From Fidelibacterota bacterium (GTDB lineage Bacteria > Fidelibacterota > UBA8477 > JABMPR01), in contig JAIPJF010000005.1 in NCBI GenBank assembly GCA_021734325.1, forward strand, positions 4,028 through 68,027: 64,000 nucleotides of DNA, given 5' to 3'. The position numbers were made by a program, and so were the translations under genes. Of this stretch, positions 18,204 to 61,431 are shown one piece after another. The number at the start of each line of letters is the position of its first letter. The first letter of the stretch is position 1. Below the pieces are notes generated by a model that did no database searches, was not told the DNA's origin, and saw nothing but the letters and a program-made list of their open reading frames with translations.

Positions 18204-18872
18204 CTATTTGGTGATTTCAGCATCTTCAATGATGTTCGGATAAAAGTAGCCGGCTCCAAAATCCTTATCAAGGGTGAGCACTCCTTTTGCTGTCACACGC
18301 ATACCGACATCAACGGAATTATCACCTGTTGTGATGACGATTGTTGATGAATCAGATTCACCATCACTTAGATGGATCCATGTTTTTCCCATAATTCCGT
18401 GAAGAACCTTAATCGCTTCACCCTGGATCGAAATTGTGTGATTATTCAATACGTCCCTTGATCGCTTCACCTCAATGATCGGCTTGAATCCGGGTAGCGT
18501 CTTGTGAATTGTTTTGGGAGCGGTCATTGACATCATCTTATGGTCAGGTCTATTGAGCTGGGCATTTGCTGCAAATAATATTCGCGGGAAAGTTCTATTC
18601 ATTGTCTTGCTATGGAAGTCTACCATCCACATTTGACCTTCAAATTCAATTTTTGCACCTACAATTGCAGGCATCAGGCGAACTGCTATCCAGAATGTGC
18701 TGTCTGCCTCCTCAATTTGAAAATAGCTATAGCCACCAGACTCCAATATCTCCTTCACAATCCCGGAATGTTTTCCCTCCTGACCCATTAGAAATGAGCT
18801 AAGCCCTAGAAAAAGAATGAGTATAGTTAATACTCTTCGAGAACCGGGGTGCTTAATATCTTGATTGGCCAT
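18204..18872 (-). CDS. Secreted or anchored protein with two related small beta-rich repeats (OB-like); function unknown
   Basis: N-terminal anchor 'VLTILILFLGLSSFLMG'. Repeat 1 is 'GGYSYFQIEEADSTFWIAV', repeat 2 is 'GKTWIHLSDGESDSSTIVITT...DKDFGAGYFYPNIIEDAEI'. It starts 8 nt after the radical SAM gene ends. Confidence 0.55.
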   Translation of the reverse strand: MANQDIKHPGSRRVLTILILFLGLSSFLMGQEGKHSGIVKEILESGGYSYFQIEEADSTFWIAVRLMPAIVGAKIEFEGQMWMVDFHSKTMNRTFPRILFAANAQLNRPDHKMMSMTAPKTIHKTLPGFKPIIEVKRSRDVLNNHTISIQGEAIKVLHGIMGKTWIHLSDGESDSSTIVITTGDNSVDVGMRVTAKGVLTLDKDFGAGYFYPNIIEDAEITK

Positions 18873-18880
18873 ACTTAACC

Positions 18881-20407
18881 CTATTCAGATAGTATATTGA
18901 GTTGTGTCAGTGTATGGGGGTGTATGACCCCTGTTTTCGTCTTCGGGTGTTTGCCGGTCATGGCGTCGAACATGCGTGAAAATGCCGATTCCTGACCAGA
19001 GCTCCGAATAAGCTCCGTTAAGAATGAGTTTTTCATAATCAAACGCATGGAGGTCTTCAGGTACTCTTTCTTGAAAGCATCAGGTTCAGTAAAAAAGTCA
19101 TGAGCCTTATTCATGTAATATCTTCTGTAGCAATCCACAAGTTGACTGCGGACCTCCTTCAGGCTCATGGTTTCTGGCTTTATGATAGGTTCAACCAGAT
19201 TGTACCTACCATAATCATACACCTCGATGAACGGTTCCATTTCCCTATACATTTCAGCATAGGGCCAGGGAGTAATGGCCAGAAAATGGGCAAAATCCGG
19301 ACTGTACTCTTGCGCGAGACGGAGTGTTTCATCAATACTCTCTTTGGTTTCCCAGGGAAAGCCTATCACAAATGATGTTTCAGTTATCATGTGATGCGCA
19401 TGGATAAGTCTGATTGCTTTCCGAGACGCCTCGATGCTCAATTCTTTATTGATCAGATCCAGCGTTTCCTGGCTGGTGGCTTCAAGACCGATGTAAATAT
19501 GGATGACCCCGGCAGCCTTATATTTTTCTAGAATATCTTCATCCCTTACAATGTCCTCAGCCCTTGTTTCAAGCAAAATGTAGACATCTAATTCGCTGAC
19601 AATAATGAGATCAAGCAGCCGCTCCCACCGCTCTCTATCTTTTGTAGGATATTCGTCCACGAATAGAAAAATATTGACGCCGTATTCTGAATGCAAGTGC
19701 TGCATTTCTGCTAGAATATTTTGTGGATCGCGGCCTCTCCAGGTTTTCCCCCAAAATTTTTGCTGAGAACAAAAGGTGCAGCCATGGGTGCATCCTCGAG
19801 AGGTGCTAATGGCCGCTAACCTGGAATCAGGGATAACAAAATATCGGTAATCTTCCCAGTCGATGAGATCCCAGGCTGTGGGTAGACTATCCAAGTCCTG
19901 ACAGAAAGGTCGTACCGCTGTGTGCTTTACTTCACCCTCATCAACATAGGTGAGTCCTGCGACATCTTTGACATCGTTCCCTAGATCCAGGGCTTTAAGA
20001 AGCTCAGGAAGTGTCTCCTCGCCTTCACCGACGACGATATAATCAATGATATTTGAATGCTCTCCAAATAGGTCTTGATAACAAAACGTTGGATGTACGC
20101 CACCCATGATCGTTTTTACTCCCGGGTGAATCCGCTTCGCCAGAGCCAGGACATCGATGCTGGCGTTAATACTTGCAGTGATTGAGGTGATGGCAATATA
20201 GTCAAATGCTTCCCGCCTGAGTGTGGTTCCAATTTCTTCAAGACTGTGCTGCTTTGACATGGCATCATAAATTTTTGCTTCATATCCGGCTTTTCTGACC
20301 GCTCCAGCGAGATAAACGAATACGAGTGGCATCCAGGTTCCTGCCGATTCAACCACGCCAGCGTGATAGGGAGGGGTGATAAATAATATTTTTTTCTTAC
20401 TACTCAT
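18881..20407 (-). CDS. B12-binding-domain radical SAM enzyme
   Basis: N-terminal cobalamin-binding Rossmann-like domain ('KILFITPPYH...AITSITAS'). Radical SAM cluster motif 'SRGCTHGCTFCSQ' (CxxxCxxC). The long C-terminal helical tail is typical of class B radical SAM proteins. Confidence 0.9.
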   Translation of the reverse strand: MSSKKKILFITPPYHAGVVESAGTWMPLVFVYLAGAVRKAGYEAKIYDAMSKQHSLEEIGTTLRREAFDYIAITSITASINASIDVLALAKRIHPGVKTIMGGVHPTFCYQDLFGEHSNIIDYIVVGEGEETLPELLKALDLGNDVKDVAGLTYVDEGEVKHTAVRPFCQDLDSLPTAWDLIDWEDYRYFVIPDSRLAAISTSRGCTHGCTFCSQQKFWGKTWRGRDPQNILAEMQHLHSEYGVNIFLFVDEYPTKDRERWERLLDLIIVSELDVYILLETRAEDIVRDEDILEKYKAAGVIHIYIGLEATSQETLDLINKELSIEASRKAIRLIHAHHMITETSFVIGFPWETKESIDETLRLAQEYSPDFAHFLAITPWPYAEMYREMEPFIEVYDYGRYNLVEPIIKPETMSLKEVRSQLVDCYRRYYMNKAHDFFTEPDAFKKEYLKTSMRLIMKNSFLTELIRSSGQESAFSRMFDAMTGKHPKTKTGVIHPHTLTQLNILSE

Positions 20408-20777
20408 AGAGAGACATTGATCTTCTTAACCGTGTTTGGATGACTAACCCCCATATGACAAGACTGACAAGCAAAATATGTTTTACGATGAGTGCGACTA
20501 TTTGTCCCCGTCCAGCGGCCGGTAACCATTCATATTGTTCATAAGCCATTGTTCTGATCACACCACCGATGATAATCCATATCCAGGCTATCCAGATCGC
20601 TTTTCTGAAATAATTATAAATTCCGATGTATAGCGTCATCCCATCCCGGGAGAGATCCTTTTTACTGGATTTATAGAGATAGCTGAGACCAAACAGGCTC
20701 ACAAATAACAAGGCTACTGCAAAATCATGAAAAAAATTGTTCAGCATGATGAATATTGACATGAACACTCCCATCAT
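20400..20777 (-). CDS. Small integral membrane protein (3-4 TM helices, His residues in the helices)
   Basis: 125 aa and hydrophobic. 'FFHDFAVALLF' and 'IVKHILLVSLVIWG' place His residues within predicted helices. Its start overlaps the upstream stop (TGATG), and its stop overlaps the radical SAM start by 8 nt (ATGAGTAG). Confidence 0.7.
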   Translation of the reverse strand: MMGVFMSIFIMLNNFFHDFAVALLFVSLFGLSYLYKSSKKDLSRDGMTLYIGIYNYFRKAIWIAWIWIIIGGVIRTMAYEQYEWLPAAGRGQIVALIVKHILLVSLVIWGLVIQTRLRRSMSLYE

Positions 20778-21790
20778 CAGAATTTATAGAACTTTAGTTC
20801 GGTGCTGGCCATATCAGTAATCATAATTAAGCGCTTTTCATTGTCAATTGCGAGATTTATCGGGGATTCCAGTTCTTCACCGTAGGTTAATATCTGGGTC
20901 CCAGACGGGTCAAATACGTGGATCATGCCGGTTTCACTATCTGCGATATGCAGTCGGCCTTGCTGGTAAATTCCTGAGGGATCAAATACACTGTCTGCTC
21001 GCGCCAGGAATTTCGGTGATGGGATATTATCGAAAGCCATTCCCTGGGGCGATTGTAGCGCATTGCTTTCAGGTTTGACCAGCAGGCCCATGTCTCTGCC
21101 ATTACAGCTAAACACTCTTACATTCGCCGGGTGTAAAGTGCTAACGAGTAGCCTTCCATCAGGAGATATGATACAGTAGCCAGGGGCGAAGAAATCTAAA
21201 TCAGACCCGTTTAAATCCGGCGCGGAAAAAATGAGTTCTCCTGGTTCGCTGATTCCCGGTTTTTCCATGATATTTATGGCCATGACCTGCTGAAGTTTGC
21301 GGTCAGTGACATAGAGGACACCATCGTGCAGGGTAATGCCATATGGACGTAATCTGCTCACGTGGTCAGGCAGCCAGGCGATACGCTGAATCAAAGTTCC
21401 CAACAGGTCATAAATACGTAAATCACCTATCTGACTATCGGTCATATAAATATGATCATGATCCGCAGTGATTCCGGTAATGGAACCTTTCCCCTCATGG
21501 GATAGGTCCAGTCGCTTGATGAATTTGAATCGCGTATCAAAGATGTCAACGAGAGATTTATTGTGATAGGAAAGAAAACGATATTGATCTGTCGAACAAA
21601 ATGCGAAGGGGCGCAGGTTTTTATCATCAGATAATTTCAGGCTCCCAAGGTAAACAGGAGGCTCATCGAATTGCGTGATCACGTGAGTATTCTGTATCTT
21701 TCTTTCCAGTGTTAGCCAGTCATCGTGACTGAAAATAGATATACTGAAAGCCAGAATAGCCCCCACAAGAATGGGGGTGCAGATCTTCAT
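20777..21790 (-). CDS. NHL-repeat six-bladed beta-propeller protein (paralogue 3)
   Basis: Start chosen at 'MKICTPILVGAILAFSISIFS' (signal peptide). An alternative ATG at 21826 would overlap the ccsA stop by 8 nt. Repeated 'GITxD..hIYVTD....I.hasp' blades (e.g. 'PYGITLHDGVLYVTDRKLQQVMAI'). Confidence 0.8.
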   Translation of the reverse strand: MKICTPILVGAILAFSISIFSHDDWLTLERKIQNTHVITQFDEPPVYLGSLKLSDDKNLRPFAFCSTDQYRFLSYHNKSLVDIFDTRFKFIKRLDLSHEGKGSITGITADHDHIYMTDSQIGDLRIYDLLGTLIQRIAWLPDHVSRLRPYGITLHDGVLYVTDRKLQQVMAINIMEKPGISEPGELIFSAPDLNGSDLDFFAPGYCIISPDGRLLVSTLHPANVRVFSCNGRDMGLLVKPESNALQSPQGMAFDNIPSPKFLARADSVFDPSGIYQQGRLHIADSETGMIHVFDPSGTQILTYGEELESPINLAIDNEKRLIMITDMASTELKFYKF

Positions 21791-21818
21791 TACTTTGCTA
21801 TTGATCAGGGAGTTCAGA

Positions 21819-22637
21819 TTAACCATAACTGTGAATGGTCTGATAGACGTAACCAACACCCCACAGAGAGAAAGCAGCGATGAGTACGGCGATAATCGCA
21901 TACCAGGCAGTAAATTTACCCCGCAAGCGTTTAAAGGTGAAGTGTATATGGAGATACAGTGCATATACGATCCAGGTGATCAAGCTCCAGGTCTCAATGG
22001 GATCCCAGGCCCAGTAACGTCCCCAGGCATTATTGGCCCACACCGCCCCGGAAGCGAGCATAATAGTATGGAAAAGGAATCCCATCATGATATAGCGAAA
22101 GACCATTTCATCTAATAGTTCAGGCGTGCTTGGGTTTATTTTATCTCCGGCTGTTGATTGTCGATTCCTTTTTAACCACATGAAGCTTATACCTGCTGCG
22201 ACGAGAAACAGGGCCACACTCGCAGTAGCAAAACTTGCATGAATAAAGAGCCATACGCTATCCAATCCTGCACTCAAGGGTTCACCTGCATAGGAGGGGG
22301 TGCTGGCCCAGCCCATAAGCAAAAATGATCCACCACTTACCCCCAGTCCGGCCAAATCGAATCCCTTACCCTGTATTTGAAGTATGAGATAGAATAAAAT
22401 GGCGAACCATGCTGTAGCAGAAGCAGATTCAAACAGCGAAACAAAGGGAGGGTGCCCAGTGTAGATCCACCTGAGGATCTGGAAGAGAGTATGCATACTC
22501 AATCCAAAATAGACTGCAATGATGGCAAAGGATGAAAATTTGTCCTTTGCAAAAAAGAAGGCAATACAAAAGACTCCAAATGCCGTAGCATAACTTAACA
22601 CTGCCAACCAATACGAGATAATTTCAAATAATTGCAT
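21819..22637 (-). CDS. ccsA: Cytochrome c biogenesis System II haem-handling protein CcsA/ResC
   Basis: Polytopic membrane protein with the Trp-rich WWD motif 'WGRYWAWDPIETWSLITW' and flanking conserved His residues. Confidence 0.9.
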   Translation of the reverse strand: MQLFEIISYWLAVLSYATAFGVFCIAFFFAKDKFSSFAIIAVYFGLSMHTLFQILRWIYTGHPPFVSLFESASATAWFAILFYLILQIQGKGFDLAGLGVSGGSFLLMGWASTPSYAGEPLSAGLDSVWLFIHASFATASVALFLVAAGISFMWLKRNRQSTAGDKINPSTPELLDEMVFRYIMMGFLFHTIMLASGAVWANNAWGRYWAWDPIETWSLITWIVYALYLHIHFTFKRLRGKFTAWYAIIAVLIAAFSLWGVGYVYQTIHSYG

Positions 22638-23937
22638 GTTTTTGCTCTGATTCCTCTGTGTGAATTGGGTCCGTTTGAGGAGAAAGGGTAATTAATGGAT
22701 TGAGCAGTGGCTCCAATTCTGATAACAGGTCTTGGATTTCCTTATGCATGCTTGCCCTGTATTTTTCTGCTTTGCTTGAGATCTTGATGCTCGTGTAATG
22801 TTTCAATTCGTCAATGCTTATCATGATAGTGGTCCGACTGAACAAAGCTCGTAACAGAAGTCCGATAATCATAGATATTAAACCCATCTGGAGAGGAATT
22901 TGTCCAGGATTAGTCTGCAGTTCGAATTGATTCCAGGTTCGGATGTCGGAGTAAAATATTTGAAGACCCTGCAAAAATCCAGATGCACCAGGGAATAATG
23001 ATAGGGAGGCTGTCATGGTATTTGGACCTTTGGGCTCTTGGATCGAGATCTGGAGCTTGTTTTGATCTTCGATCTTCAGGTTTAAAACAACACCATTGGG
23101 CAGAGTAAAATGATCCGAATGGATACGCGTACCATTGGTCCAGCGGTTCGCAATTCTGATATATCCAGCAAGTTGTTGTCCTGTGTCATCAAGAATTCTG
23201 AGACCTGGTGAATACCCCCAGTTCATTAAAATGAACCCGTAGTCGTCTATATGTCCCCCTTCTCCATAAATGATTGTTTTTTCAGTATGGGTTTTAGGGG
23301 AAAATACAGTAGCACTACCGGGAGTGACCACTTGATCCTTGTACAATACGGGGGGGATGAAACTGCTCAGGGACACAGAGAATGACTCCCGAGTCCCTGG
23401 AGTGACAAACCAGCCTGGATCTGAATGCTGCCAGGATTGAGTTGGACTATCAAAAGTTTCACCCTCTGTCAAGGAGAAAACCATTTTATGACCCAAGGCC
23501 ATATTCATGAACAGAGCGATTAAAATTATTAATAAGGCGAAATGGAATATAAATGAGCCCCAAATACCAACATTCAGGTTTGAATAGGTCATGCCAGTAT
23601 GGAAGAGGTATCTGCGATTAAAGGATCTGACATTTGTCATATGCTCGGTTATGATCTCCTCGACCTGCTGACTTCGGAAGGGGGAATAGAGGGCAAATAT
23701 CTTGGGCGAATGCTTGAAGCCTGTCTTTGCAGCCTTCGATCGTTTCAACTCACTTCTTATACGACGGAAAAGAGAGAGCGAGAGCATGATGATGGTCAGG
23801 AGTCCTAATGTTACACCTATCTGTTCCAGTGAACCCACGTCTACGATTGATGGGAAAAGGGCAATATTCACAGACAAGATGAGCAAAGCGATTAGAAATA
23901 GAAATGCGAGTCTATTAATAGTCAAAAATCGAGACAT
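22624..23937 (-). CDS. ccsB: Cytochrome c biogenesis System II protein ResB/CcsB-like
   Basis: Start chosen at 'MSRFLTINRLAFLFLIALLIL'; the longer ORF would overlap the upstream cytochrome gene. The topology is ResB-like: N-terminal TMs including the His-bearing 'IFHFALLIILIAL', a large soluble domain and a C-terminal TM. It overlaps ccsA by 14 nt. Confidence 0.7.
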   Translation of the reverse strand: MSRFLTINRLAFLFLIALLILSVNIALFPSIVDVGSLEQIGVTLGLLTIIMLSLSLFRRIRSELKRSKAAKTGFKHSPKIFALYSPFRSQQVEEIITEHMTNVRSFNRRYLFHTGMTYSNLNVGIWGSFIFHFALLIILIALFMNMALGHKMVFSLTEGETFDSPTQSWQHSDPGWFVTPGTRESFSVSLSSFIPPVLYKDQVVTPGSATVFSPKTHTEKTIIYGEGGHIDDYGFILMNWGYSPGLRILDDTGQQLAGYIRIANRWTNGTRIHSDHFTLPNGVVLNLKIEDQNKLQISIQEPKGPNTMTASLSLFPGASGFLQGLQIFYSDIRTWNQFELQTNPGQIPLQMGLISMIIGLLLRALFSRTTIMISIDELKHYTSIKISSKAEKYRASMHKEIQDLLSELEPLLNPLITLSPQTDPIHTEESEQKHAII

Positions 23938-23957
23938 TTTTGCTAAAGTTTCATCTC

Positions 23958-25841
23958 TTAGTAATTTGTACCTTTGTGGGTCTTGGCACAATTTGCCGCA
24001 CCTGATTCTGACCAGCATTTGGGCACAGTGAAATCAATGTCTGCAATATAGCCGTTTACGAAGGCTCTCAGAGGTTGGGCAGTACCGGCACTGGATAATT
24101 GCTCATTTGTCACATATGCTTTATTCTGTCCATGGACATAGATCACCTTACTGTTTCCCCCTGACGTTGCCCCTATTTCAGAGCTTTCATACATATGGCA
24201 TGAGAAACATCCCATTGTCAATCGATGGGCACTTTTTACCGAGGGATGTTGACCAAATTGAGAGGACACCAAGCCACCATTCCAATAATTTGCATAGGAG
24301 TGGCACACATTGCAGAGGGGCGTGCCATTGGTTGCATCGCTGGCGATTGTCGCCACCAACATGGCAGATTGATTGGATGCGGGATCTGGGCTGTCCACGA
24401 TAACCGAAGAACCATGTGGTCCGGTGGCGTCAGTTCGATCAGGTATTCCTGTACCTGTGGACGTCCATCCTAAATCACTTCCATGACAATCTGAACATAG
24501 CACCAGACGGGTTGCGGAATCAAATGGGGGATTGGCATTGCTGGAATTCACCCACACGGTTTCATTTCTCTGTACAATTCCATGTGTGGAAGCATGGTTA
24601 GGATTGATCTCAAGGGCGATATTTCTTTTGCCTGCACCCTGCGTCGTATAATCAGAATGACATTTCAGACAGATCTGCCATTCAGCTGTCACCGGGTCCA
24701 CCACTGTATAGGTGATTGTAGGGCTGCCAAAATCGTTTGAGTTATCGGAAAAACTAGTTGGAGGCGTCCACCAGGTTGGCTGAACTCCCCATGTTCCTTT
24801 TAGAGCCGTTGCTAACGATGAGCCTGTCGTACCACCTGCAAGATGTGGCTCATGACAATCAAAACACTCTGCGTGTCGCTTGTCTGGATCTCTGAAAAAT
24901 GTATCTGCAGGAGCGGTCATAAATGTTTCACCACTAACATGAATTCCGGAAATTGTATTTGTTGGATGAGCATTGAGACTATTTAGTGGAGTCTCTATAT
25001 CCAAACTTCTGCCGCTGCTGGTCCCTGTTGCTGCTGTTGGTGCGTGACACCCCGAGACAGAGCAGGTAGCTTCTTCAACACCGGATAAAAGTGAGTTCCC
25101 ACCTCCATGGGGTTTATGACAGCCGGCACAACCTGTGGTATAATGAGCGACATCCACATCCCAGCCTGATTTAGCGTGACAGGTATTACATAGGTCTGCA
25201 CTGGGTTGGTGCAGGAAAGGTGCATATGTGGTATTGTGAGGATCATGGCAGGTATGACATTCAACGGTACCAGAAATATCATTGGGGTCAAGAAGGACAC
25301 CGCCAGTCAATGATGGATCCCAAGGGAAAGTCCTTGCGACAAGGTCTGGATCCTGACCCGGTCCACTTCCCTGATCATAAGTGAATCCGATTGGATGATC
25401 ATCTGTGAGATCGGTGCCTATGTATCCTGCGGCAACAAGTGGCATGGTTGTGACGCCGCCGGCCATGGTAATGGCGGATCCCGTGCCACTCCCCGGTGCA
25501 TTGTATACAGAACCGATAGCCACGGTTCCATCGTGACAGCTCATACAGAGTTTGGATTTGTCATTCGGTTGTGATGGTGTTGCATAACCTGAGAGCCTGG
25601 TGCTTGAGTATAAAGTATAGTCTGTTACAGAGCTCATCTGTTGGTTCCAGAGCTGATCAATGGTCTGGGTACTATGAGCAGTATGACAGAAAATGCAAAC
25701 CCCTTGTTCTGTGTCGGCCTGGTATGTGGCTCCCGTTGAAGAAGCTGAGAGGTCGTGCTTTGAATTTATAATTGATTGACCGGAGAGGACTGCATTCATT
25801 ACAAGGGCAGAAATAAACAAATAAAGAAGCTGTCTAATCAT
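23958..25841 (-). CDS. Multiheme cytochrome c, 11 haem-binding motifs (10 CxxCH + 1 CxxxxCH)
   Basis: Signal peptide 'MIRQLLYLFISALVMNAVLSGQ' (ATG 25841 overlaps the upstream stop by 8 nt, ATGATTAG). Motifs: CIFCH, CMSCH, CHTCH, CNTCH, CAGCH, CSVSGCH, CFDCH, CLKCH, CSDCH, CNVCH, CFSCH. The N-terminal 'SKHDLS...CIFCHTAH' resembles the doubled-CXXCH family. Confidence 0.95.
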   Translation of the reverse strand: MIRQLLYLFISALVMNAVLSGQSIINSKHDLSASSTGATYQADTEQGVCIFCHTAHSTQTIDQLWNQQMSSVTDYTLYSSTRLSGYATPSQPNDKSKLCMSCHDGTVAIGSVYNAPGSGTGSAITMAGGVTTMPLVAAGYIGTDLTDDHPIGFTYDQGSGPGQDPDLVARTFPWDPSLTGGVLLDPNDISGTVECHTCHDPHNTTYAPFLHQPSADLCNTCHAKSGWDVDVAHYTTGCAGCHKPHGGGNSLLSGVEEATCSVSGCHAPTAATGTSSGRSLDIETPLNSLNAHPTNTISGIHVSGETFMTAPADTFFRDPDKRHAECFDCHEPHLAGGTTGSSLATALKGTWGVQPTWWTPPTSFSDNSNDFGSPTITYTVVDPVTAEWQICLKCHSDYTTQGAGKRNIALEINPNHASTHGIVQRNETVWVNSSNANPPFDSATRLVLCSDCHGSDLGWTSTGTGIPDRTDATGPHGSSVIVDSPDPASNQSAMLVATIASDATNGTPLCNVCHSYANYWNGGLVSSQFGQHPSVKSAHRLTMGCFSCHMYESSEIGATSGGNSKVIYVHGQNKAYVTNEQLSSAGTAQPLRAFVNGYIADIDFTVPKCWSESGAANCAKTHKGTNY

Positions 25842-26844
25842 TGCTGCTGCTCCTGAGATATTGAAAAATCTGGATGCGCCCATTCATGGTATCAGCAATG
25901 TAAATCTTATCGTTATTATCGATCCATATTCCAGAGGGCATATTGAATTGTCCATGCCCATTTCCTGGGCTTCCGACAACCAGAAGTAATTGGCCCTCGG
26001 CATTGAAAATCTGGAATACATTAAACAGGTTGTCCACGACATAAATGTGATCCTGACTGTCACTGGCAATTCCTTTTGAACGCATAAACGTTCCCTGCAC
26101 ATCTCCCTGTTCTCCAAATATGTTTGTGATTTTATGGCTCTCATTCACTGCTTGTACCCGGAAGTTCATGGAATCGTTTATATACAGGTGTTTCCCTGTT
26201 CCCATAAATACAGGAAAATTGAATTCACCTGGACCAATGCCCTGCTGACCAAACTCAAACAAATATGTACCATCAAGGTTAAAGATGAAGATCTTGTGAT
26301 AACCCGTGTCTGCGACATATAATCGATTTTGATAGATGCAAAGTCCAGTCGGTCGAGAAAAATATCCCTCTATAGCATATTCCAATCGTCCTTTTTCATT
26401 GAGGATAAAAACAGACCCTATCTCCGAATCACTTATAAATATTTTTCTGCTCTGGGAAACCACAACATCTACAGGACTGATAAAAGGAGTTGAGCCGGCG
26501 TGATCAATGCGCTGGTAGCTTTTATCCTTTTGGTCGAACACATGCAGTGTCCTTAGTCCCTGATCTGTTACATACAGCCTGCCCATTCCATCGACGCACA
26601 AGCTTAGGGGTTTGACCAGTGACTCACTTCGGGAATCTCTTCCTAAAACGAAATCGACCACCTTGCTCCAGAATTTTTTTTCAATTCCCAAATCCTGACT
26701 GGAATAAATACTCGAGACGTAGCGTATGCGTGCCATTTCAGGTGGTTCGGGCCAGACGGGTTTCTCCTCTGCCCAGGCGAAGTCCAATGCTCCCAGTAGG
26801 AGAATAGTAATGCAGAGGCCCTTTATTGGCAGAAAAACTTTCAT
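25834..26844 (-). CDS. NHL-repeat six-bladed beta-propeller protein (paralogue 2), secreted
   Basis: Signal peptide 'MKVFLPIKGLCITILLLGALDFAWA'. NHL blades include 'GEFNFPVFMGTGKHLYINDSMNFRVQAV' and 'GQFNMPSGIWIDNNDKIYIADTMNGRIQIF'. Confidence 0.85.
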   Translation of the reverse strand: MKVFLPIKGLCITILLLGALDFAWAEEKPVWPEPPEMARIRYVSSIYSSQDLGIEKKFWSKVVDFVLGRDSRSESLVKPLSLCVDGMGRLYVTDQGLRTLHVFDQKDKSYQRIDHAGSTPFISPVDVVVSQSRKIFISDSEIGSVFILNEKGRLEYAIEGYFSRPTGLCIYQNRLYVADTGYHKIFIFNLDGTYLFEFGQQGIGPGEFNFPVFMGTGKHLYINDSMNFRVQAVNESHKITNIFGEQGDVQGTFMRSKGIASDSQDHIYVVDNLFNVFQIFNAEGQLLLVVGSPGNGHGQFNMPSGIWIDNNDKIYIADTMNGRIQIFQYLRSSSND

Positions 26845-26923: not shown

Positions 26924-28597
26924 CTATAACGTTATCGTTATTGGACGGCTTATCGTAATAAAATATCGATTCCCGGAATTGAATTTACTTTCTCGATATT
27001 CATATCGAAAGCTGATTCGATATGCGTATACACGTGCGTTTAAATTTGCATTCAGGGTCGTTGAAATGAAATGCACCAAATTACTTGTATCAGTTGGGTC
27101 CGATCCAATGGTTATTGTTTGATGACTGTATAATCCTGAGATCTGAGTGGAAAAATTTCGAAAAAGACCTGAATTGGCAAAGCTGATTCTGGCTGATCTC
27201 GCTTTATCAAGTGGCTTATCAAGGTTTGTCCACGAGAGGTTTGCCTCCAAGCTTCCGGTTGTGGCTCGACCCAGTTTTATATTTGATCGGCCTTTTAATA
27301 TTCTTGAATGGACAATGTCGGAGCTACTGACCAGGCCAGTGCGTGCCTGCCCTTGAATGACACTCAAATCCAGAAATATATTTGAGCTGACATTGCTTTG
27401 AAATCCAAAGTGAACGCTATTTCTAAATGCTGAGTTAGACAAATAGCTCAACAGATGTGTGAAGCTTTCTTCTCCATTCAGCTCAATTTTTTGGTTTAGC
27501 TTCCATCTCATTCTACCACTGATGCTCAAGGTGTTTGCATAGTGATATTTCTCCTGGTGTCTTAATCTCTGTACGCCAGTCTTATCGCTGATGGTCAAAG
27601 AAGTTCGTGCGCTCCTGATCCGCTTGTTGTATAGAAAATTGGCTCTGACCCAGTAGGCATTTTCGGACATGCGTTCAACAGGTGATATGGAATTGGTCTC
27701 AGAAAGATCTGCTCCCAGGGATAGACGTTTACCATTTGGAAGTGTAAACGAACTTGAATGAATTGCGCTGATCGATTGAGTGCTGAATAGGGCAGTACTC
27801 TGCTTTTGCATACCAAGCACTGTTGTATGACGCGTACCTGGAGGAGTATCAGGGATAATATTTATTTTTCCGTTCGAAGATTGGGCCTGATTAAGTTTGT
27901 TCAGATTTGCCTGTGTCGTTATCCTGATTTTGTCAATCAATCTGGTGAAGGAATTAAAAGAAACAGTTTCGTAGGTATTATCAAGATTCACCAGGTAATT
28001 ATGATCCCTTGCCTTGGAATAATACATCGAATAGCCAGCTGTTACATCACGACTCTGATTATTGATGGCAATTGAAAATTGATTCCCACTTTGAAGCAGC
28101 GCGTTTTGATTTGCAATTTGTGAAAGACTAGTACTATAAACGATCTTTGGCAAAAGTTTGGTCCCGGGTATACTTCCCTGAAGTCTCAGAAAATCATTGT
28201 TCTCAAATATTTTCCCCAATAATTGGGATGATCCATTGCTCTCTTCTCTTCTATTCCTTATAAGGCTCAGGCTGATCGGAAAGCGCGATTTTTTTAGCAG
28301 GTTGCTTCTTAAGTTATAATTCCATTGTCTTGGTATAAAAGTCGTGCTCCCAGCGGCTTCACGTATCAGGGTCCGTTGGTCATTATAAGCTGTGGTTAGA
28401 ACATAATCACCGATGCGCTCATGGAGAAGTCTGCCCATGATCCTTAGCTGATAGTTTTGGCGATAATTTGAAATTTGATTGGCATCTTTATCAAACGAAT
28501 TTGTCATATTGAGCGTTATCGTCGATATCTGAGCAATGCCGCTTGACAGCAGGATCAAAATAAAAAAACAGACTTTATAACTGCTCTTGAGAGTCAT
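26924..28597 (-). CDS. Predicted outer-membrane beta-barrel protein (candidate porin of the cytochrome cluster)
   Basis: Signal peptide 'VCFFILILLSSGIAQ'. 557 aa, Ser/Thr/Asn/Arg-rich with many short alternating hydrophobic/polar stretches, no Cys-haem motifs and no TM helices. I recognised no family by eye. Confidence 0.55.
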   Translation of the reverse strand: MTLKSSYKVCFFILILLSSGIAQISTITLNMTNSFDKDANQISNYRQNYQLRIMGRLLHERIGDYVLTTAYNDQRTLIREAAGSTTFIPRQWNYNLRSNLLKKSRFPISLSLIRNRREESNGSSQLLGKIFENNDFLRLQGSIPGTKLLPKIVYSTSLSQIANQNALLQSGNQFSIAINNQSRDVTAGYSMYYSKARDHNYLVNLDNTYETVSFNSFTRLIDKIRITTQANLNKLNQAQSSNGKINIIPDTPPGTRHTTVLGMQKQSTALFSTQSISAIHSSSFTLPNGKRLSLGADLSETNSISPVERMSENAYWVRANFLYNKRIRSARTSLTISDKTGVQRLRHQEKYHYANTLSISGRMRWKLNQKIELNGEESFTHLLSYLSNSAFRNSVHFGFQSNVSSNIFLDLSVIQGQARTGLVSSSDIVHSRILKGRSNIKLGRATTGSLEANLSWTNLDKPLDKARSARISFANSGLFRNFSTQISGLYSHQTITIGSDPTDTSNLVHFISTTLNANLNARVYAYRISFRYEYRESKFNSGNRYFITISRPITITL

Positions 28598-28664
28598 AAA
28601 CGACGCTTATAAAGAATTGAGATTATTCCCATTTCACAATACCCCACTTGCCCTGGAAATAGAA

Positions 28665-28701
28665 AAAGGACCAAAAAAGTTTTGAGCTCCCTTGGTCCTT
28701 T
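28665..28701 (-). terminator. Rho-independent terminator directly after the tetrahaem cytochrome gene
   Basis: On the minus strand: aaaggaccaa-(17-nt loop)-ttggtccttt followed by ttctattt. It lies 40 nt after the stop at 28741. Confidence 0.8.
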
Positions 28702-28740
28702 TACCCGGTTTAAACGATGATTAAGCCGTGGGAGAAATCC

Positions 28741-29388
28741 TTATTTCGAATGACAGGTGATACATAGTGCGCTGGAAGCATTGCTCTTCCGTAAAAATGT
28801 ACCGTTCGTGTTGTCATGCGGATCATGACAGCTATTACACTCAACCTTGCCATTTGTCAGCTTCAAACCGCCTGTGCTTGTGACCGTAGCTGCTGCGACG
28901 AATCCAGAAGCATCTGCAGCAATACTTTCAGAGTATAATATCCCAACTGGATGATCACCACTTAAATCCCTTGTCATGTCTGGCATACCGGCAGCAATGA
29001 TTCCACTAGTCACATTTCCACCATCAGTTATAGCAATGGTTGCACCACTGGCACCAGATCCCGATTCATTCAGTATGACGCCGATAGCTGTGGCACCATC
29101 ATGGCAGCTCATGCAGGCAGTAGATCCTTCGCCAGAGGAACCGGCTGTGCTAGCCAGGGCCACAGTGTTGTAAGTGGCTATGGTTCCTGATCCCTTGTTC
29201 CAGAGCAGGTCAGCGCCATTGGTTGTGTGTGGCGTATGGCAAAAGATACAGGTACCCGTCTCAGTTGTAGCGACAGCACCACCGCTGGTCGAACTGGTGG
29301 ACAGGTCATGCTTTGTGTTCGCGATTTGAGCATTTGTCACGCCGATAGCGATCAACAGCACTAAGCTTGAAAGTAACAGTTTTTTCAT
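28741..29388 (-). CDS. Small secreted tetrahaem cytochrome c (215 aa), Ser/Thr/Gly/Ala-rich
   Basis: Signal peptide 'MKKLLLSSLVLLIAIGVTNAQ'. Motifs: CIFCH, CMSCH, CNSCH, CITCH. It is collinear with the first four haem motifs of the 11-haem protein (KHDLS, CIFCHT.H, LWN, CMSCHDG..AIG, DHP.G, VEC..CHDPH, LC.TCH.K). Confidence 0.95.
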   Translation of the reverse strand: MKKLLLSSLVLLIAIGVTNAQIANTKHDLSTSSTSGGAVATTETGTCIFCHTPHTTNGADLLWNKGSGTIATYNTVALASTAGSSGEGSTACMSCHDGATAIGVILNESGSGASGATIAITDGGNVTSGIIAAGMPDMTRDLSGDHPVGILYSESIAADASGFVAAATVTSTGGLKLTNGKVECNSCHDPHDNTNGTFLRKSNASSALCITCHSK

Positions 29389-29506
29389 TTTTTCCCCTCT
29401 TCGTTTATAAGCCGGATAGAAATCTAATTCTACCTTTTACAATACCTCCAATTTCAAACATCTGTATTTGTCGATACTATTGTTTGTCACAGGTGAGATA
29501 ACTTGC

Positions 29507-29522
29507 GGCAATATCCGTGCCA
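29507..29522 (-). promoter_or_regulatory. Near-consensus sigma-54 (-24/-12) promoter for the tetrahaem cytochrome gene
   Basis: The minus strand reads TGGCACGGATATTGCC against the consensus TGGCACG-N4-TTGCW, with exact GG-N10-GC spacing. The -12 GC lies about 120 nt upstream of the ATG at 29388, inside a 230-nt intergenic region. Confidence 0.75.
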
Positions 29523-29619: not shown

Positions 29620-30633
29620 CTATCCCGCTCCAAGAAAGCGGAATACCTGGACACGTGAATTGTGCTGATCAACCACATAAATCAAATTATTTTCGTCAAT
29701 ATGTATCCCCATGGGAGTATGAAATTCACCCGCAGCAGTTCCGGGAATACCGACAAATAAATAGACATTGCCAGCTTCATCAAATATTTGGAAATTGTGG
29801 TACATCCCGTCTGTCACAAAGATATACTCATCATTTGTGACTGCCAAGCCCTTGGGTCTGTAGAGATCACCAGGGGCATCACCTGCCTGCCCGAACTTGG
29901 AAATGAAATTTCCGTCGAGATCAAAAATCTGAACTCGGAAATTCATGGCATCCACGACATAAATTTTATCATTCTTGATGGACATATAGGAAGGAAAATT
30001 AAACTCACCCTCTCCACTTCCTCTTGCGCCAATGGTAAACAACTGATCTCCGCTGTGAGCATTAAAAACAATGATTTGATGTGAATTGCTATCGGTAACG
30101 TAGAGTCTGTCTGTCCCGGCATGATAGGCTAAGCCTCCGGGTCGGTTCAATTCGCCCTTTTTGCCTATCAGTTTTATAAATTTGCCGTTTGTGGTCATAC
30201 AGACAATTTTTTGCAAATAGCTGTCGGCTACCCAGATAAGACTATCATGGATGGCCAGACCTACAGGCCATAATAATTTAGTCTTTCCCTGCTGACCAAT
30301 TTTTCGAATTTTGCCTTGCTCTCTGTCGAACACTTTTATTGAGCGATCGGCACTATCGCTGACATAGACATTTCCCCTGGCATCTGTCGCGACATCAAAG
30401 GCTTGAATGAGCTTTTGACCGGCTTCCGCACCAAATACAATGGTGCTAAGTTTGTCTTGATAGCTTTGTCCCTGGAAATATTGATCCTGTAAAATTTCAA
30501 CAAATTCAATTCGTGCCTGATCTGGAGGATCCGGCCAGACGAGCTCTGGCCACACTGAAACTGTTGGTGTACACCCAGTGAGGGAAAAGAGCGTTGAAAT
30601 AAAAGACACATATAATTTGATTATTTTTTTCAC
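29620..30633 (-). CDS. NHL-repeat six-bladed beta-propeller lipoprotein (paralogue 1)
   Basis: Lipobox 'LFSLTGC'. NHL blades include 'GEFNFPSYMSIKNDKIYVVDAMNFRVQIF' and 'GEFHTPMGIHIDENNLIYVVDQHNSRVQVF'. It is clearly paralogous to 25834-26844. Confidence 0.85.
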   Translation of the reverse strand: MKKIIKLYVSFISTLFSLTGCTPTVSVWPELVWPDPPDQARIEFVEILQDQYFQGQSYQDKLSTIVFGAEAGQKLIQAFDVATDARGNVYVSDSADRSIKVFDREQGKIRKIGQQGKTKLLWPVGLAIHDSLIWVADSYLQKIVCMTTNGKFIKLIGKKGELNRPGGLAYHAGTDRLYVTDSNSHQIIVFNAHSGDQLFTIGARGSGEGEFNFPSYMSIKNDKIYVVDAMNFRVQIFDLDGNFISKFGQAGDAPGDLYRPKGLAVTNDEYIFVTDGMYHNFQIFDEAGNVYLFVGIPGTAAGEFHTPMGIHIDENNLIYVVDQHNSRVQVFRFLGAG

Positions 30634-30649: not shown

Positions 30650-31699
30650 TCAATTATTGGGATCCTGCTTAAGCACCTCAAGGGAGGGGGGAACAGGGAG
30701 TTTCAATCTTTCTGGAATGATAAATTCAGGCTGCTCAATATCGGTTGTTTTCCCATTCTCATTCGCTTTGAGTGCACTTAGCGATGGAGCCAGCGGTAGA
30801 TCGTAATCTTTGGGACCTACATAGAATTCAGGTCTACTGATTGAACTATCATAAGGGGGACTGAACAGACCAAACCCACTGAATAAATCTTTCAGATCCT
30901 GCCACAAGTTTGTGTGCTTGGCAAGCGGAAAACCAATCAGGGGTCTCGTCGAAAAACCTGCCATAGCCTGTATGACCGGTTGTGATTGATCACCAGACAT
31001 GCAAAAGCCGTATGCCATGCCCACCTGTAAATGACTGAAAACGAAGGTCTTGATCCCGGCATTGATAAATGATTCATATCCTTCAGGTGCAGACCCATCC
31101 AGAAAATACTCCCCGCTGACCTGAAGATTCTTGAACAGGGGTCGACTTCCAGCCAATCCGAAATACAGCCCTCTTTTTACTCTCCTCTCCTCAAAGGTCC
31201 TTTCCTGCAAACCGACTTGTAATATTGCATTCACATTACCCAGAGTATACTCTGAGATCAAGGTAGCCTGGTAAAAACGATAATTCGAGACGGATGAAGG
31301 GAGAGGATTGGAAATATATTCCACCTGTGAGGACTTTGCTGAGAGGGCGAGATTAGCGTCATGCCAGGTAAGCAGGTTGATCTTTGTGCCAATTTGTGAA
31401 TCACCAAGTAAAGCATTATTAAAGGTACTTTGCTGATTATGGGAAAGGAAAATCTCAATTTTGGGAGAAATCCCCAGGGCAAAATTAAAGGGAATAAACT
31501 GACTTGAATGAGCAGGCAGCAGTCCGATGCGGATATGGCCAACATCCAGGGTCTGGGCACTCGGGATATAAAACAATCCCGTTGAACCATTCAAGCTTAT
31601 CCCGAGATCTGGTATATATGGTGATTGATCTGCAGCATGGAGGCCGCAGACAACTTGTAGAAACAGGGCGAACAGGACAAGTTTGGGTGTATGTTTCAT
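30650..31699 (-). CDS. Secreted, outer-membrane-like protein with a Pro-rich C-terminal tail
   Basis: Start chosen at 'MKHTPKLVLFALFLQVVCGLHA' (signal peptide, 4 nt after the upstream stop). 'STGLFYIPSAQTL' resembles the N-terminal motif of YjbH-like beta-barrel proteins. The C-terminal roughly 80 aa are Pro-rich. Confidence 0.5.
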   Translation of the reverse strand: MKHTPKLVLFALFLQVVCGLHAADQSPYIPDLGISLNGSTGLFYIPSAQTLDVGHIRIGLLPAHSSQFIPFNFALGISPKIEIFLSHNQQSTFNNALLGDSQIGTKINLLTWHDANLALSAKSSQVEYISNPLPSSVSNYRFYQATLISEYTLGNVNAILQVGLQERTFEERRVKRGLYFGLAGSRPLFKNLQVSGEYFLDGSAPEGYESFINAGIKTFVFSHLQVGMAYGFCMSGDQSQPVIQAMAGFSTRPLIGFPLAKHTNLWQDLKDLFSGFGLFSPPYDSSISRPEFYVGPKDYDLPLAPSLSALKANENGKTTDIEQPEFIIPERLKLPVPPSLEVLKQDPNN

Positions 31700-31703
31700 A
31701 GGC

Positions 31704-32909
31704 CTAATTTTTAAAATGACATTGTTGACAAAGCTCACTCCAATTCCCCCTCAGCAGAAATTCCTCATCTGAAGCGTGGGGGTGGTGACAGGAGGCACAG
31801 CTCAATTCGTGATCAGGATCCAGGGGATTTGGGTACCCTGAATGAGGATGTTTTTTGACCGGGTGGAATCCAGCTTTGATATGATCATGGCAGCTTAGGC
31901 ATAATTCATTTGTCTTTTTAACAAGGAGGGCGTCAGCCGATGTTCCGTGGGGGTCATGACAAATGAGACAGCTTTCCTCCATGGGCGGATGGATATTTTC
32001 CATATTGTTAACTTCGTCTTCCTGATCGCTATGACACATCATGCAAGTACTCGGGTCTCCGCGGAAATCTTCTAGAAGTTGATGTTTGGGATCGGATCCA
32101 TCATCATGACAGGAATTGCATTCCATTTCTTCAGTGGGAGAATGCATCATTGCTTTGTCCAGGATTGATGAGTGGCAGAACGAGCAGTCGTCTTCCTCCA
32201 TCTCCGTATGACAATAGGAGCACTTTTCCTCATTTTCGCCATGGAACTCACTACGGACGGCATTCTCAGGGACATCTTCAGCCAGAGAGGAAATGAAATA
32301 ATAGAAATTCAGGGTGTCGGCATATTGCAATTCATATTCTTCGTTCAGGAAATGCAGATAGAATGAATTAGAACCAGGTTTAAACGCAAGTTGTGAGGCG
32401 ATGAGGTCTGGATGATTGGGGCGACTTAATGGATTCAGTATCCTTTTCTCAACATTCCAGCCAATTAAAGTGATTTTCAGATTAAGAGCGTTAATTTCGG
32501 TGACTTTTTGAAGGGCCCGTCGGAAATCGGTCGTTCGCCAGAAATCTTCCAGATCGAGGGGGCGACTGGTTGAAAAATTGTATTCATAGGTCGAGGTGTC
32601 ATTATTTATATGAATAAAATTCAGGATCATGATATTGACATTGAACCGAGGGGTGAACATGTTCATCATGGTTTTGGGAAAGGCATCTTTTTCCTCGGGA
32701 CTGAGGATGCCCATTGATGTACTGATAGTTGTATCCTGGAGGAGTTGGTATTCGGTGCGGGTAGAGGAAGTGTAGAGTGCTTTTAAAAACCCTCCCTGTG
32801 CATAACTGATTTTTTCGTGGGTTAGCGGAAAGAGTAATTGGAGATCATCACCGTAATTAGGGCTGGATATTAGAACCAAAAACAGCAGAAAAAGGACATG
32901 TATTTTCAT
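31704..32909 (-). CDS. Octahaem cytochrome c with a roughly 220-aa N-terminal non-haem domain
   Basis: Signal peptide 'MKIHVLFLLFLVLISS'. Motifs: CSYCH, CSFCH, CNSCH, CMMCH, CLICH, CLSCH, CASCH, CQQCH, all in the C-terminal 180 aa. 'CHDPHGT...LL....LCLSCH' is a doubled-CXXCH-like spacing. Confidence 0.95.
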   Translation of the reverse strand: MKIHVLFLLFLVLISSPNYGDDLQLLFPLTHEKISYAQGGFLKALYTSSTRTEYQLLQDTTISTSMGILSPEEKDAFPKTMMNMFTPRFNVNIMILNFIHINNDTSTYEYNFSTSRPLDLEDFWRTTDFRRALQKVTEINALNLKITLIGWNVEKRILNPLSRPNHPDLIASQLAFKPGSNSFYLHFLNEEYELQYADTLNFYYFISSLAEDVPENAVRSEFHGENEEKCSYCHTEMEEDDCSFCHSSILDKAMMHSPTEEMECNSCHDDGSDPKHQLLEDFRGDPSTCMMCHSDQEDEVNNMENIHPPMEESCLICHDPHGTSADALLVKKTNELCLSCHDHIKAGFHPVKKHPHSGYPNPLDPDHELSCASCHHPHASDEEFLLRGNWSELCQQCHFKN

Positions 32910-33187: not shown

Positions 33188-34660
33188 ATGTTGAGGATTT
33201 CCATATATTACCTGTTTTCACTTGCTGTCATGACCATTTACGGCGGACAGGTCTGTCCTTTCATTGATACCCTCACCGTATTTGAATGGGGAAAGACGCT
33301 TTCTGCCTTTTTTCTTATCCTATTTGTTGTTCGACACCAACTCATTAAGAAATTTGTGTACTCGAAACCGGCCATGCACCAGCCAAGGCAACAGATGGTT
33401 TTCGAATTTTGTCTTTTTATCATTGCCGGGATGGCCATCGCCACCTACAACCACTTTGTTTATGTATTCCCACCTATCGGGAGTGGGGGCAAGGTCACTG
33501 TTGGCATGTTCACACTCGGCTCATTCCTCGCCATGGACATGGCATTGCTCAGAGAGCGTCTCATCCTACAGGAGGCTAAAGCGCATGGTGAACGTCTAGC
33601 TCCTGTGAAAGAATTTAGTTCTCTGATCAAAAAGTTCACAATCTTTGCCATCCTGGTCCTATCGTTCGTGTCCGTGGTCATTCTGCTGGTCATAAGCAAG
33701 GATATCTATTGGATCTCAATGGCAGAGATGGAGGATCTGGATGATGTTCGAAGGACAATATCATTTGAGGTCCTGTTTGTCATTATAATCACTCTGGGTC
33801 TGGTCCTGAATCTGATCTACTCCTATTCCCAAAATCTAAAACTTTTCTTCGCCAATGAGACACAGGTGCTTAACGAGGTGAATCAGGGTAATCTGGACGG
33901 CTATGTTCCCGTTTTGAGCAGGGATGAATTTGCCCACATTGCAGAGCATACCAACCAGATGATCGATGGGCTTCGAGAAAAACGACGTATTCAAAATATC
34001 TTTGGTAAGGTGGTCAGTCCGGAAGTTGCCACCCACCTGCTCTCCCTCAAAGAAAATGAGCTCAAACTGGGAGGACAGCGTCGTGAACTGGTGATTCTGC
34101 TCTCAGATATCAGAGGTTTTACCTCACTCACCGAGAATTATGAACCGGAAGAAATGGTCGCAGGGCTGAATAAGTACTTCACTGACATGGTGAAGATCAT
34201 CCATAAAGAAAACGGTGTGGTTGATAAGTTTATCGGTGATGGGATTCTGGCTGTCTTTGGTCTAACGGATACAGAAGAGGCTCCTGAACAGGCCTTGAGG
34301 GCTGCACGCGAGATGTTCAATATCTGTCGGGAGAATAATACAAGCTATGAATTACCCATTAAAATGGGTATAGGGATTCACTCAGGTGTCGTGATCGCCG
34401 GTAATATTGGGTCTGAGGAACGGCTGGAATATACGGTAATCGGTGATGCGGTCAACGTCACCGCCCGACTGGAAACACTGACCAAGGATCTGGATGCCTC
34501 CATCGTAATCTCAAAGGCCTTGTACGAAAAATTAAAACAATCCCGAGAGGATCTTCCCTGGCAGGATCATGGTCCCCAAACCTTAAAAGGTAAGCGTGAA
34601 AAAATTCATGTTTATGGACTTGCCATAAACAATGCCGATTCAAATCCAGTGAAAATATAG
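33188..34660 (+). CDS. Membrane-bound class III adenylate/guanylate cyclase (multi-TM sensor, HAMP, cyclase)
   Basis: N-terminal TM helices and a HAMP-like linker. The catalytic core is 'LVILLSDIRGFTSLTE...VDKFIGDGILAVFG...GIGIHSGVVIAGNIGSEERLEYTVIGDAVNVTARLE'. Confidence 0.9.
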   Translation: MLRISIYYLFSLAVMTIYGGQVCPFIDTLTVFEWGKTLSAFFLILFVVRHQLIKKFVYSKPAMHQPRQQMVFEFCLFIIAGMAIATYNHFVYVFPPIGSGGKVTVGMFTLGSFLAMDMALLRERLILQEAKAHGERLAPVKEFSSLIKKFTIFAILVLSFVSVVILLVISKDIYWISMAEMEDLDDVRRTISFEVLFVIIITLGLVLNLIYSYSQNLKLFFANETQVLNEVNQGNLDGYVPVLSRDEFAHIAEHTNQMIDGLREKRRIQNIFGKVVSPEVATHLLSLKENELKLGGQRRELVILLSDIRGFTSLTENYEPEEMVAGLNKYFTDMVKIIHKENGVVDKFIGDGILAVFGLTDTEEAPEQALRAAREMFNICRENNTSYELPIKMGIGIHSGVVIAGNIGSEERLEYTVIGDAVNVTARLETLTKDLDASIVISKALYEKLKQSREDLPWQDHGPQTLKGKREKIHVYGLAINNADSNPVKI

Positions 34661-61360: not shown

Positions 61361-61431
61361 AATCCCCTCCCAAAGACACTATTTTATTCTGTAAAGTATC
61401 TTGAATGTAAAATATGCAGATTACATGCCAA

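Follow-up and report, generated by a model that had tools for sequence, protein, structure and literature searches.

An OmcE-family tetrahaem cytochrome gene in a promoter-gene-terminator cassette of Fidelibacterota, and its probable role as a filament subunit

The stretch of DNA analysed here, hereafter the window, comprises 64,000 nucleotides (nt) of contig JAIPJF010000005.1 (positions 4,028 to 68,027 of the forward strand) from the Fidelibacterota bacterium assembly GCA_021734325.1, and it carries on its (-) strand a gene for a small tetrahaem cytochrome of 215 amino acids (aa; 28741-29388), which sequence homology, ligand conservation and predicted fold assign to the OmcE family. This gene is preceded by a sigma-54 (-24/-12) promoter and a predicted leader, is followed by an intrinsic terminator, and stands within a long series of genes read in the same direction. 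Read from the translation, the protein contains four CxxCH motifs and exactly eight histidines, the haem motifs being located at C47, C92, C184 and C209 and the distal histidines at positions 27, 54, 146 and 191. Residues 1-20 form a predicted Sec-type signal peptide with a hydrophobic N-terminus (MKKLLLSSLVLLIAIGVTNA, followed by QIANTKHDL), which ends in VTNA just before Q and leaves a mature part of 195 aa, in which Ser, Thr, Gly and Ala together make up 51% of the residues. The original prediction, made from the letters of the window, had described a mature protein of about 195 aa, rich in these four residues and holding four haems, and the count bears this out. The identical public protein, NCBI MCF7823150.1, comes from a Candidatus Marinimicrobia metagenome-assembled genome (phylum Fidelibacterota) and is annotated 'cytochrome c3 family protein', a name that conceals the OmcE relationship.

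The small cytochrome had initially been likened to OmcE on the basis of its size and haem count, homology being regarded as impossible to judge by eye. A phmmer comparison with all PDB sequences reveals that the homology is true: the OmcE of G. sulfurreducens (GSU0618; 7TFS) is matched over its full length with an E-value of 6.5e-29 (residues 6-215 against 9-232), and the OmcE of Desulfuromonas soudanensis (DSOUD_2954; 9YUQ, a filament bundle solved in preprint 10.1101/2025.10.22.684050), likewise over its full length, with an E-value of 1.3e-25 (residues 1-215 against 1-218). These two proteins constitute the closest known system, with which the 215-aa protein shares its length, the signal peptide, the four CxxCH motifs, the distal histidines (in NTKHDL, CxxCHTPH, DHP and CHDPH) and the predicted fold, while the identity is about 35% and the filament, conductive and extracellular in Geobacter, is known for OmcE and predicted for the present protein. 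In the alignment, each of the eight histidines pairs with a histidine of OmcE, leaving no spare ligand, and the eight haem-ligand histidines and eight cysteines are invariant or nearly so in two alignments of 41 and 120 relatives. An earlier AlphaFold2 run on the 41-sequence alignment gave an unusable model, with a predicted local distance difference test (pLDDT) score of 42; the run on the 120-sequence alignment reached a pLDDT of 77 and a predicted template modelling (pTM) score of 0.72. The Foldseek comparison of the latter model with the PDB, a test already suggested with the original prediction, returned the OmcE structure 7TFS as its single match (E 1.2e-8, probability 1.00, TM-scores of 0.53 and 0.56, 35% identity). 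Such moderate TM-scores fit with the strong divergence of loops reported even when the two solved OmcEs are compared with each other (preprint 10.1101/2025.10.22.684050). Taken together, the sequence, the ligand set and the predicted fold identify the 215-aa protein as a member of the OmcE family. OmcS (6EF8) is more remote, as it possesses six haems in about 400 aa and displays no significant overall sequence similarity; a weak N-terminal region can be aligned (E 0.014), in which the histidine of CxxCHxxH faces OmcS His16, which we take to be the inter-subunit ligand of OmcS. The OmcS region nevertheless resembles the window in that it contains genes for outer-membrane beta-barrels and follows the same cluster logic.

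The promoter of the small gene, TGGCAC-GGATA-TTGC (29508-29522 (-)), was recognised by its exact consensus, its conservation in a close relative and its recurrence in the family. It appears on the coding strand as TGGCACGGATATTGC at 29522-29508, 134 nt upstream of the gene and within a gap of 231 nt. A near-consensus sigma-54 promoter peculiar to this gene had been announced, and the match to TGGCAC-N5-TTGC is exact (10/10) and the only one on either strand of the 64 kb, for which shuffled sequences lead one to expect 0.12. Scaled from these shuffles, the chance of finding the exact consensus in the 231-nt spacer and on the right strand amounts to about 2e-4; the matches with one mismatch are present in the window at chance level and lie inside coding sequence. 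Among the related loci, the one with an orthologue of 87% identity (L001) keeps TGGCATAAATCTTGC at the same distance, around 135 nt from the ATG, though the spacer is only about 53% identical, and the one with an orthologue of 58% identity (L004) has a weaker site, TGGCATGTATGTTGA, upstream of its small gene. Assuming a transcription start some 12 nt beyond the GC of the promoter, the predicted 5' leader measures about 108 nt (29389-29496 (-)), which is the length first proposed. This leader is poorly conserved in comparison with L001. A regulatory RNA at this place was considered and rejected, as the search of Rfam gave no match and the folding is unremarkable (z = -1.1). A ribosome-binding site, GAGGGG (29399-29394 (-)), stands 5 nt ahead of the ATG, and just one more of the 13 cluster genes, that of a 362-aa protein, has a comparable Shine-Dalgarno-like site.

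At the other end of the gene, folding and enrichment in the family point to an intrinsic terminator (28655-28702 (-)) with a 16-bp stem, a 7-nt loop and a U-tract. The hairpin itself (28702-28664 (-)), after which UUUUUCUAUUU follows, has a folding energy of -20.6 kcal/mol (z = -3.15) and begins 38 nt past the stop codon, in good agreement with the strong terminator that had been placed at 40 nt, and no other strong terminator-like site was found on the (-) strand between 20 and 34 kb. The tight coupling that had been claimed for the surrounding genes is equally apparent: the 13 co-oriented genes that run from 32909 down to 18204 overlap or are 8-79 nt apart, except at the two gaps flanking the 215-aa gene, which, with 231 nt upstream and 143 nt downstream, are the largest of the cluster. 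Hairpins followed by U-tracts also come after the small gene in L001, L004 and L006, with energies from -16 to -22 kcal/mol and z-scores from -2.8 to -4.6, and the terminators of L004 (58% relative) and L006 (50% relative) are unrelated, that is, non-homologous, in sequence.

The recurrence of this layout was evaluated across the family. A scan of one genome per species for OmcE-like relatives yielded at least 571 loci from more than 15 phyla, and the statistics were drawn from the 80 best loci together with the orthologues, which contain 79 genes of the small four-haem type, 42 of the long type with 10-11 haems and 249-259 other cluster genes. The exact sigma-54 consensus was detected upstream of 6 of 78 small genes, compared to none of 291 for all other cluster genes (Fisher p = 7.6e-5), and a match of at least 9/10 upstream of 14 of 78 compared to 6 of 291 (Fisher p = 1.7e-6). 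In the same line, a terminator, defined as a hairpin of -12 kcal/mol or better with a U-tract at most 120 nt from the stop codon, follows 28 of 79 small genes and 15 of 301 other cluster genes (Fisher p = 1.4e-11). The sigma-54 matches originate from Ignavibacteriae, Acidobacteriota, Geobacteraceae, Nitrospirota, Myxococcota, Betaproteobacteria and Planctomycetota, and two Geobacteraceae loci are found among the terminator matches. In the light of these enrichments over the other cluster genes, the cassette is a recurrent property of small OmcE-like genes: the promoter-gene-terminator layout is statistically typical of them across phyla without being universal, and sigma-54 is a recurrent option rather than the rule. 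The 'structural-subunit' cassette first read from the window, with its promoter, single gene and terminator, has all its elements in place at this locus and has counterparts elsewhere in the family. No paper linking omcE to RpoN was found in the literature searched. Major subunits of surface fibres are known to be encoded in cassettes of this type, as illustrated by the sigma-54/PilR-dependent pilA, the sigma-54-dependent flagellins, and papA with the stem-loop that follows it. What these have in common with the window is an activator-dependent promoter of high strength, followed by a single short gene for the structural protein and by a hairpin that separates it from the assembly genes, leading to an excess of subunit; their product is a pilin or flagellin instead of a haem protein, so that the analogy concerns regulation only.

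The genes around the cassette reinforce the resemblance to known systems. In Desulfuromonadia, the minimal omcE cluster comprises the genes for OmcE, for a pair each of multihaem cytochromes and beta-propeller lipoproteins, and for a large beta-barrel protein, with resB/ccsB adjoining (preprint 10.1101/2025.10.22.684050). The cluster of the window is a close match to it: the OmcE-like gene is accompanied by those for two multihaem cytochromes, a pair of propellers and a large putative outer-membrane protein, and resB/ccsA for cytochrome c maturation lie alongside. Two differences can be mentioned, namely that no block of glycosylation genes is evident next to the window cluster and that one of its two multihaem cytochromes carries an OmcE-like module of its own. 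The whole gene order is common to L001-L003 (87% orthologue) and to L004 and L005 (58% orthologue), and on another Fidelibacterota contig, L044, the genes of its downstream half are present.

Upstream of the small gene, and all on the (-) strand, the cluster begins with a 401-aa octahaem cytochrome (31704-32909), which has eight CxxCH motifs, three Paired_CXXCH_1 domains and weak DmsE/GSU2203-like matches, and which is likely to be the periplasmic electron donor. It is followed by a secreted 362-aa protein (30650-31738) that matches no Pfam or NCBIfam family and is conserved in the cluster, its syntenic counterparts being 41% identical in L001 and 24% identical in L004, and by a 337-aa NHL six-bladed beta-propeller (29620-30633; Pfam NHL and DUF5128) with the lipobox LTGC, a putative partner of the small cytochrome. 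In the family, an NHL gene adjoins 28 of 44 small forms. Only one of the two cluster propellers has a lipobox, the second one (336 aa, 25834-26844, Pfam NHL) being encoded downstream of the small gene and coupled to the gene of a 641-aa cytochrome with about 11 haems. Beyond the latter lie ResB and CcsA (21819-24018; Pfam ResB and Cytochrom_C_asm), the proteins of System II cytochrome c maturation, and then a propeller-like protein, a 125-aa membrane protein, a BchE-like B12-binding radical SAM protein and a 222-aa protein (18204-21964). With respect to these last genes, the BchE-like assignment scores 421 bits and thus stays under the 481-bit cut-off; the propeller-like, 125-aa and radical SAM genes are syntenic in L001 and L004, the first two in L044 as well; and the 222-aa protein, which belongs to no family, has relatives near the clusters of five other loci. 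On the opposite strand, a MASE10-guanylate/adenylate cyclase gene (33188-34660 (+)) diverges from the first cluster gene and occupies the same position in L001-L003, so that a cyclic-nucleotide input to cluster expression is possible.

Directly downstream of the small gene, a secreted 557-aa protein with a signal peptide (26924-28597 (-)) is a candidate for the secretion or anchoring pore. It evolves fast: a word-indexed search, also when run with a profile, provided two to three close relatives, an iterative hidden Markov model search among the fetched loci reached nothing past orthologues, and neither Pfam, for the protein, nor the PDB, for its profile, gave a match. The profile built with the equivalent open reading frames of related loci does align, however, with that of a family of 650-aa cluster-associated proteins (hhalign probability 99.2%, E 2.4e-19, 527 columns), which end in the outer-membrane signature R-x-F and whose profile weakly touches the Opa60 barrel. 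There is thus good reason, on sequence grounds, to regard the 557-aa protein as a probable outer-membrane barrel.

The 641-aa cytochrome (23958-25883 (-)) combines, as judged from its 7TFS match and its motifs, an N-terminal OmcE-like module of four haems with a C-terminal extension of seven, for a total of ten CxxCH motifs and one CxxxxCH. Its N-terminal 238 residues match 7TFS with an E-value of 2.4e-33, better than the small protein does. The 215-aa protein had also been called a paralogue of the first four-haem unit of this neighbour, and the two are indeed 38% identical (E 2e-41); the duplication seems to be ancient rather than local, since in a rough neighbour-joining tree the N-modules of the long forms and the small forms, including both solved OmcEs, fall mostly into separate, old groups. 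The long form is found in at least 42 loci from many phyla, with a near-fixed spacing of its 10-11 haem motifs; an NHL gene directly precedes it in 39 of these 42 loci, and the small form is present too in 35, five of the seven exceptions being contigs shorter than 10 kb. As for the 403-aa C-terminal extension (23958-25169 (-)), 355 relatives were detected among 1.84 billion representatives, often at the extreme C-terminus of proteins of 600-750 aa and many also in proteins of 1,100-3,400 aa, in the manner of a reusable terminal module.

In the omcE operons examined in Desulfuromonadia, no tip-like relative of OmcE, be it an initiator, a stopper or a tip, was present (preprint 10.1101/2025.10.22.684050). 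One tentative and rather unlikely idea is that the 641-aa protein could be such a filament-end component. Its N-module would dock on the end of the filament through the subunit interface, and the seven-haem extension would connect the filament electrically, as a base, anchor or nucleator, with the outer-membrane protein and the periplasm or, as a tip, with an external acceptor. The OmcE match of the N-module, the fixed haem spacing, the co-occurrence with the small form and the NHL gene, the old separate clades and the recurrent extension allow this reading. Against it stands the fate of a ninth, self-capping 'stopper' histidine, which was considered and rejected: the motif FLH is present in the window and L001 and is not conserved elsewhere. 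Alternatively, the long form could build a filament of its own or be an ordinary conduit cytochrome.

The search for a regulator brought several sigma-54 activators to light. The window encodes an NtrC-type activator paired with a kinase (58357-61360), which was dropped as regulator of the cluster since it shares no more than 36% identity with the activator linked to the cluster in L004, too little to indicate orthology. A sigma-54-like site, TGGCATGTAATCTGC (8/10; 61416-61430 (-)), located 56 nt upstream of this pair, hints at autoregulation. In L004, three genes, for a histidine kinase, a sigma-54 activator and a receiver protein, interrupt the cluster immediately before the small gene, and an exact TGGCACACTCATTGC comes after the activator gene. 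Histidine kinases with a single CxxCH, possibly haem-c sensors, were noticed beside cytochrome genes in L004 (2342-5199), L063 (9637-12540), L084 (2791-5747) and L023 (9701-11216). In the first three of these loci, a sigma-54 activator gene comes after the kinase and directly upstream of the small OmcE-like gene, and the spacer shows paired GGGnnAAATAnCCC motifs together with a variant promoter, TGGCAT-N5-TTG(A/T). These pairs were discarded as the activator-binding motif of the window promoter, near which they are absent.

OmcE-like genes were also encountered on phage-like contigs. Outside the Marinimicrobia clade, the nearest relative (50% identity) resides on an 84-kb contig (L006, 10001-12197; also L007), in the neighbourhood of a T4-type RNA ligase, a DprA-like protein, three HNH endonucleases and ten tRNA genes, and behind it come a terminator and a 490-aa open reading frame weakly similar to the 557-aa protein of the window (E 3e-6). 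Eight IMG/VR contigs (L088-L095), four of them of 166-536 kb, contain solitary OmcE-like genes without propellers or long cytochromes, and in L088 and L090, the two whose surroundings were examined, adjacent genes match phage families of the HNH endonuclease, RtcB and DnaB-like kinds. No OmcE-like protein was found in GenBank phages.

All in all, the 215-aa protein is likely to serve as the major subunit of a cytochrome filament of the OmcE type in a Fidelibacterota (Marinimicrobia) bacterium and to be expressed as the cassette describes. The corresponding model would start with a sigma-54 enhancer-binding protein that switches the promoter on upon a signal. As most transcripts would stop, or be stabilised, at the hairpin, far more of the subunit would be produced than of the outer-membrane protein, propeller and 11-haem protein encoded downstream, whose genes would depend on read-through. 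The pre-protein would be exported by Sec and receive its four haems from ResB/CcsA, before passing to or through the 557-aa outer-membrane protein, with the NHL propellers helping in export and mounting. Outside the cell, the subunits would polymerise head to tail, one histidine of each supplying the missing axial ligand to a haem of its neighbour, thereby giving a continuous insulated haem chain for extracellular electron transfer. This last step is modelled on OmcE and OmcS, in both of which one haem is ligated by a histidine of the adjacent subunit (PMC9473688, PMC12954529), the interface thus leaving a haem that needs a histidine from the next subunit (preprint 10.1101/2025.10.22.684050).

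Several points weigh against this model. On the side of expression, a sigma-54 match precedes merely 8-18% of the small OmcE-like genes, a weak sigma-70-like site (9/12) overlaps the sigma-54 site, no recognisable activator-binding site or inverted repeats were found upstream of the promoter, no rpoN gene was found within the window, and the NtrC-type activator of the window lies 29 kb away. On the side of structure, the TM-score to 7TFS does not exceed 0.53-0.56, the loop residues 51-80 are of low confidence in the AlphaFold2 model, and a haem-free monomer model cannot display an inter-subunit histidine bond. Filament formation, extracellular location and expression in this organism, like the barrel nature of the 557-aa protein, are deduced from sequence. 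Finally, the physiological role of cytochrome filaments is itself a matter of dispute (PMC11077965).

The main rival explanation keeps the OmcE fold and does away with polymerisation: the protein would be a monomeric tetrahaem shuttle of the periplasm or outer surface, for instance the extracellular partner of a porin-cytochrome conduit made of the 557-aa, 8-haem and 11-haem proteins. It gains from the breadth of the OmcE-like family, spread over at least 571 loci with only two members shown to form filaments, and from the likeness of the cluster to porin-cytochrome clusters, to which the weak DmsE/GSU2203-like matches of the 401-aa protein contribute. Against such a shuttle stand the eight histidines, exactly those of OmcE with none to spare, the OmcE interface, which leaves one haem in need of the next subunit's histidine (preprint 10.1101/2025.10.22.684050), and the subunit-style cassette, which fits a product needed in large excess; it is considered unlikely. 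Very unlikely is a second explanation, according to which there is no monocistronic cassette and the gene shares its transcription with the entire operon, initiated either ahead of the 401-aa gene or at the sigma-70-like site, the hairpin being either too leaky to matter or a mere stabiliser of the mRNA 3' end. No terminator was found between the upstream propeller gene and the 215-aa gene, the sigma-70-like site does overlap the sigma-54 site, no activator-binding site was found near the promoter, and the downstream assembly genes need to be transcribed from somewhere; moreover, a sub-threshold Rfam match to a 3'-untranslated-region stem-loop family would suit a stabilising role. Opposed to these arguments are the low chance of an exact consensus in the spacer, the promoter distance kept in L001 despite the diverged spacer, and the enrichment of promoter and terminator at small OmcE-like genes across phyla, and a stabilising stem-loop would also raise the level of the subunit mRNA, with the same outcome of subunit excess. 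A compact periplasmic c3/c7 cytochrome, one of the outcomes that would have contradicted the original prediction, was ruled out, as the Pfam Cytochrome_C7 and c3 matches are confined to the approximately 35 C-terminal residues (180-214) and no c3/c7 structure is among the Foldseek matches in the PDB. The c3/c7 (PpcA-type) cytochromes are, like the 215-aa protein, multihaem c-type proteins with bis-His ligation, but their compact fold takes 70-120 aa with all ligands intramolecular, whereas the 215-aa protein has two to three times their size and consists mainly of coil.

That OmcE relatives are widespread was to be expected; what stands out here is the Fidelibacterota host, the family-wide cassette, the link to sigma-54 and the 11-haem paralogue. 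Five phyla have been listed for OmcE homologues, Fidelibacterota not being among these (preprint 10.1101/2025.10.22.684050), and no report tying the uncultured Marinimicrobia to OmcE, OmcS or cytochrome nanowires was found in the literature searched. For the family, the cassette offers a simple genomic signature with which the polymerising subunit can be picked out among many multihaem genes, and it points to sigma-54 activators, some of them inside related clusters beside CxxCH kinases, as candidate regulators. The conserved 11-haem paralogue with its OmcE module is a concrete and testable candidate for the start, anchoring or capping of the filament and, should this hold true, it would take the role of the initiator, stopper or tip that was sought without success in the omcE operons of Desulfuromonadia. 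For the organism and its relatives, the presence of a complete omcE-type cluster in Marinimicrobia suggests a capacity for electron exchange, with particles or with partner cells, among members of the phylum.

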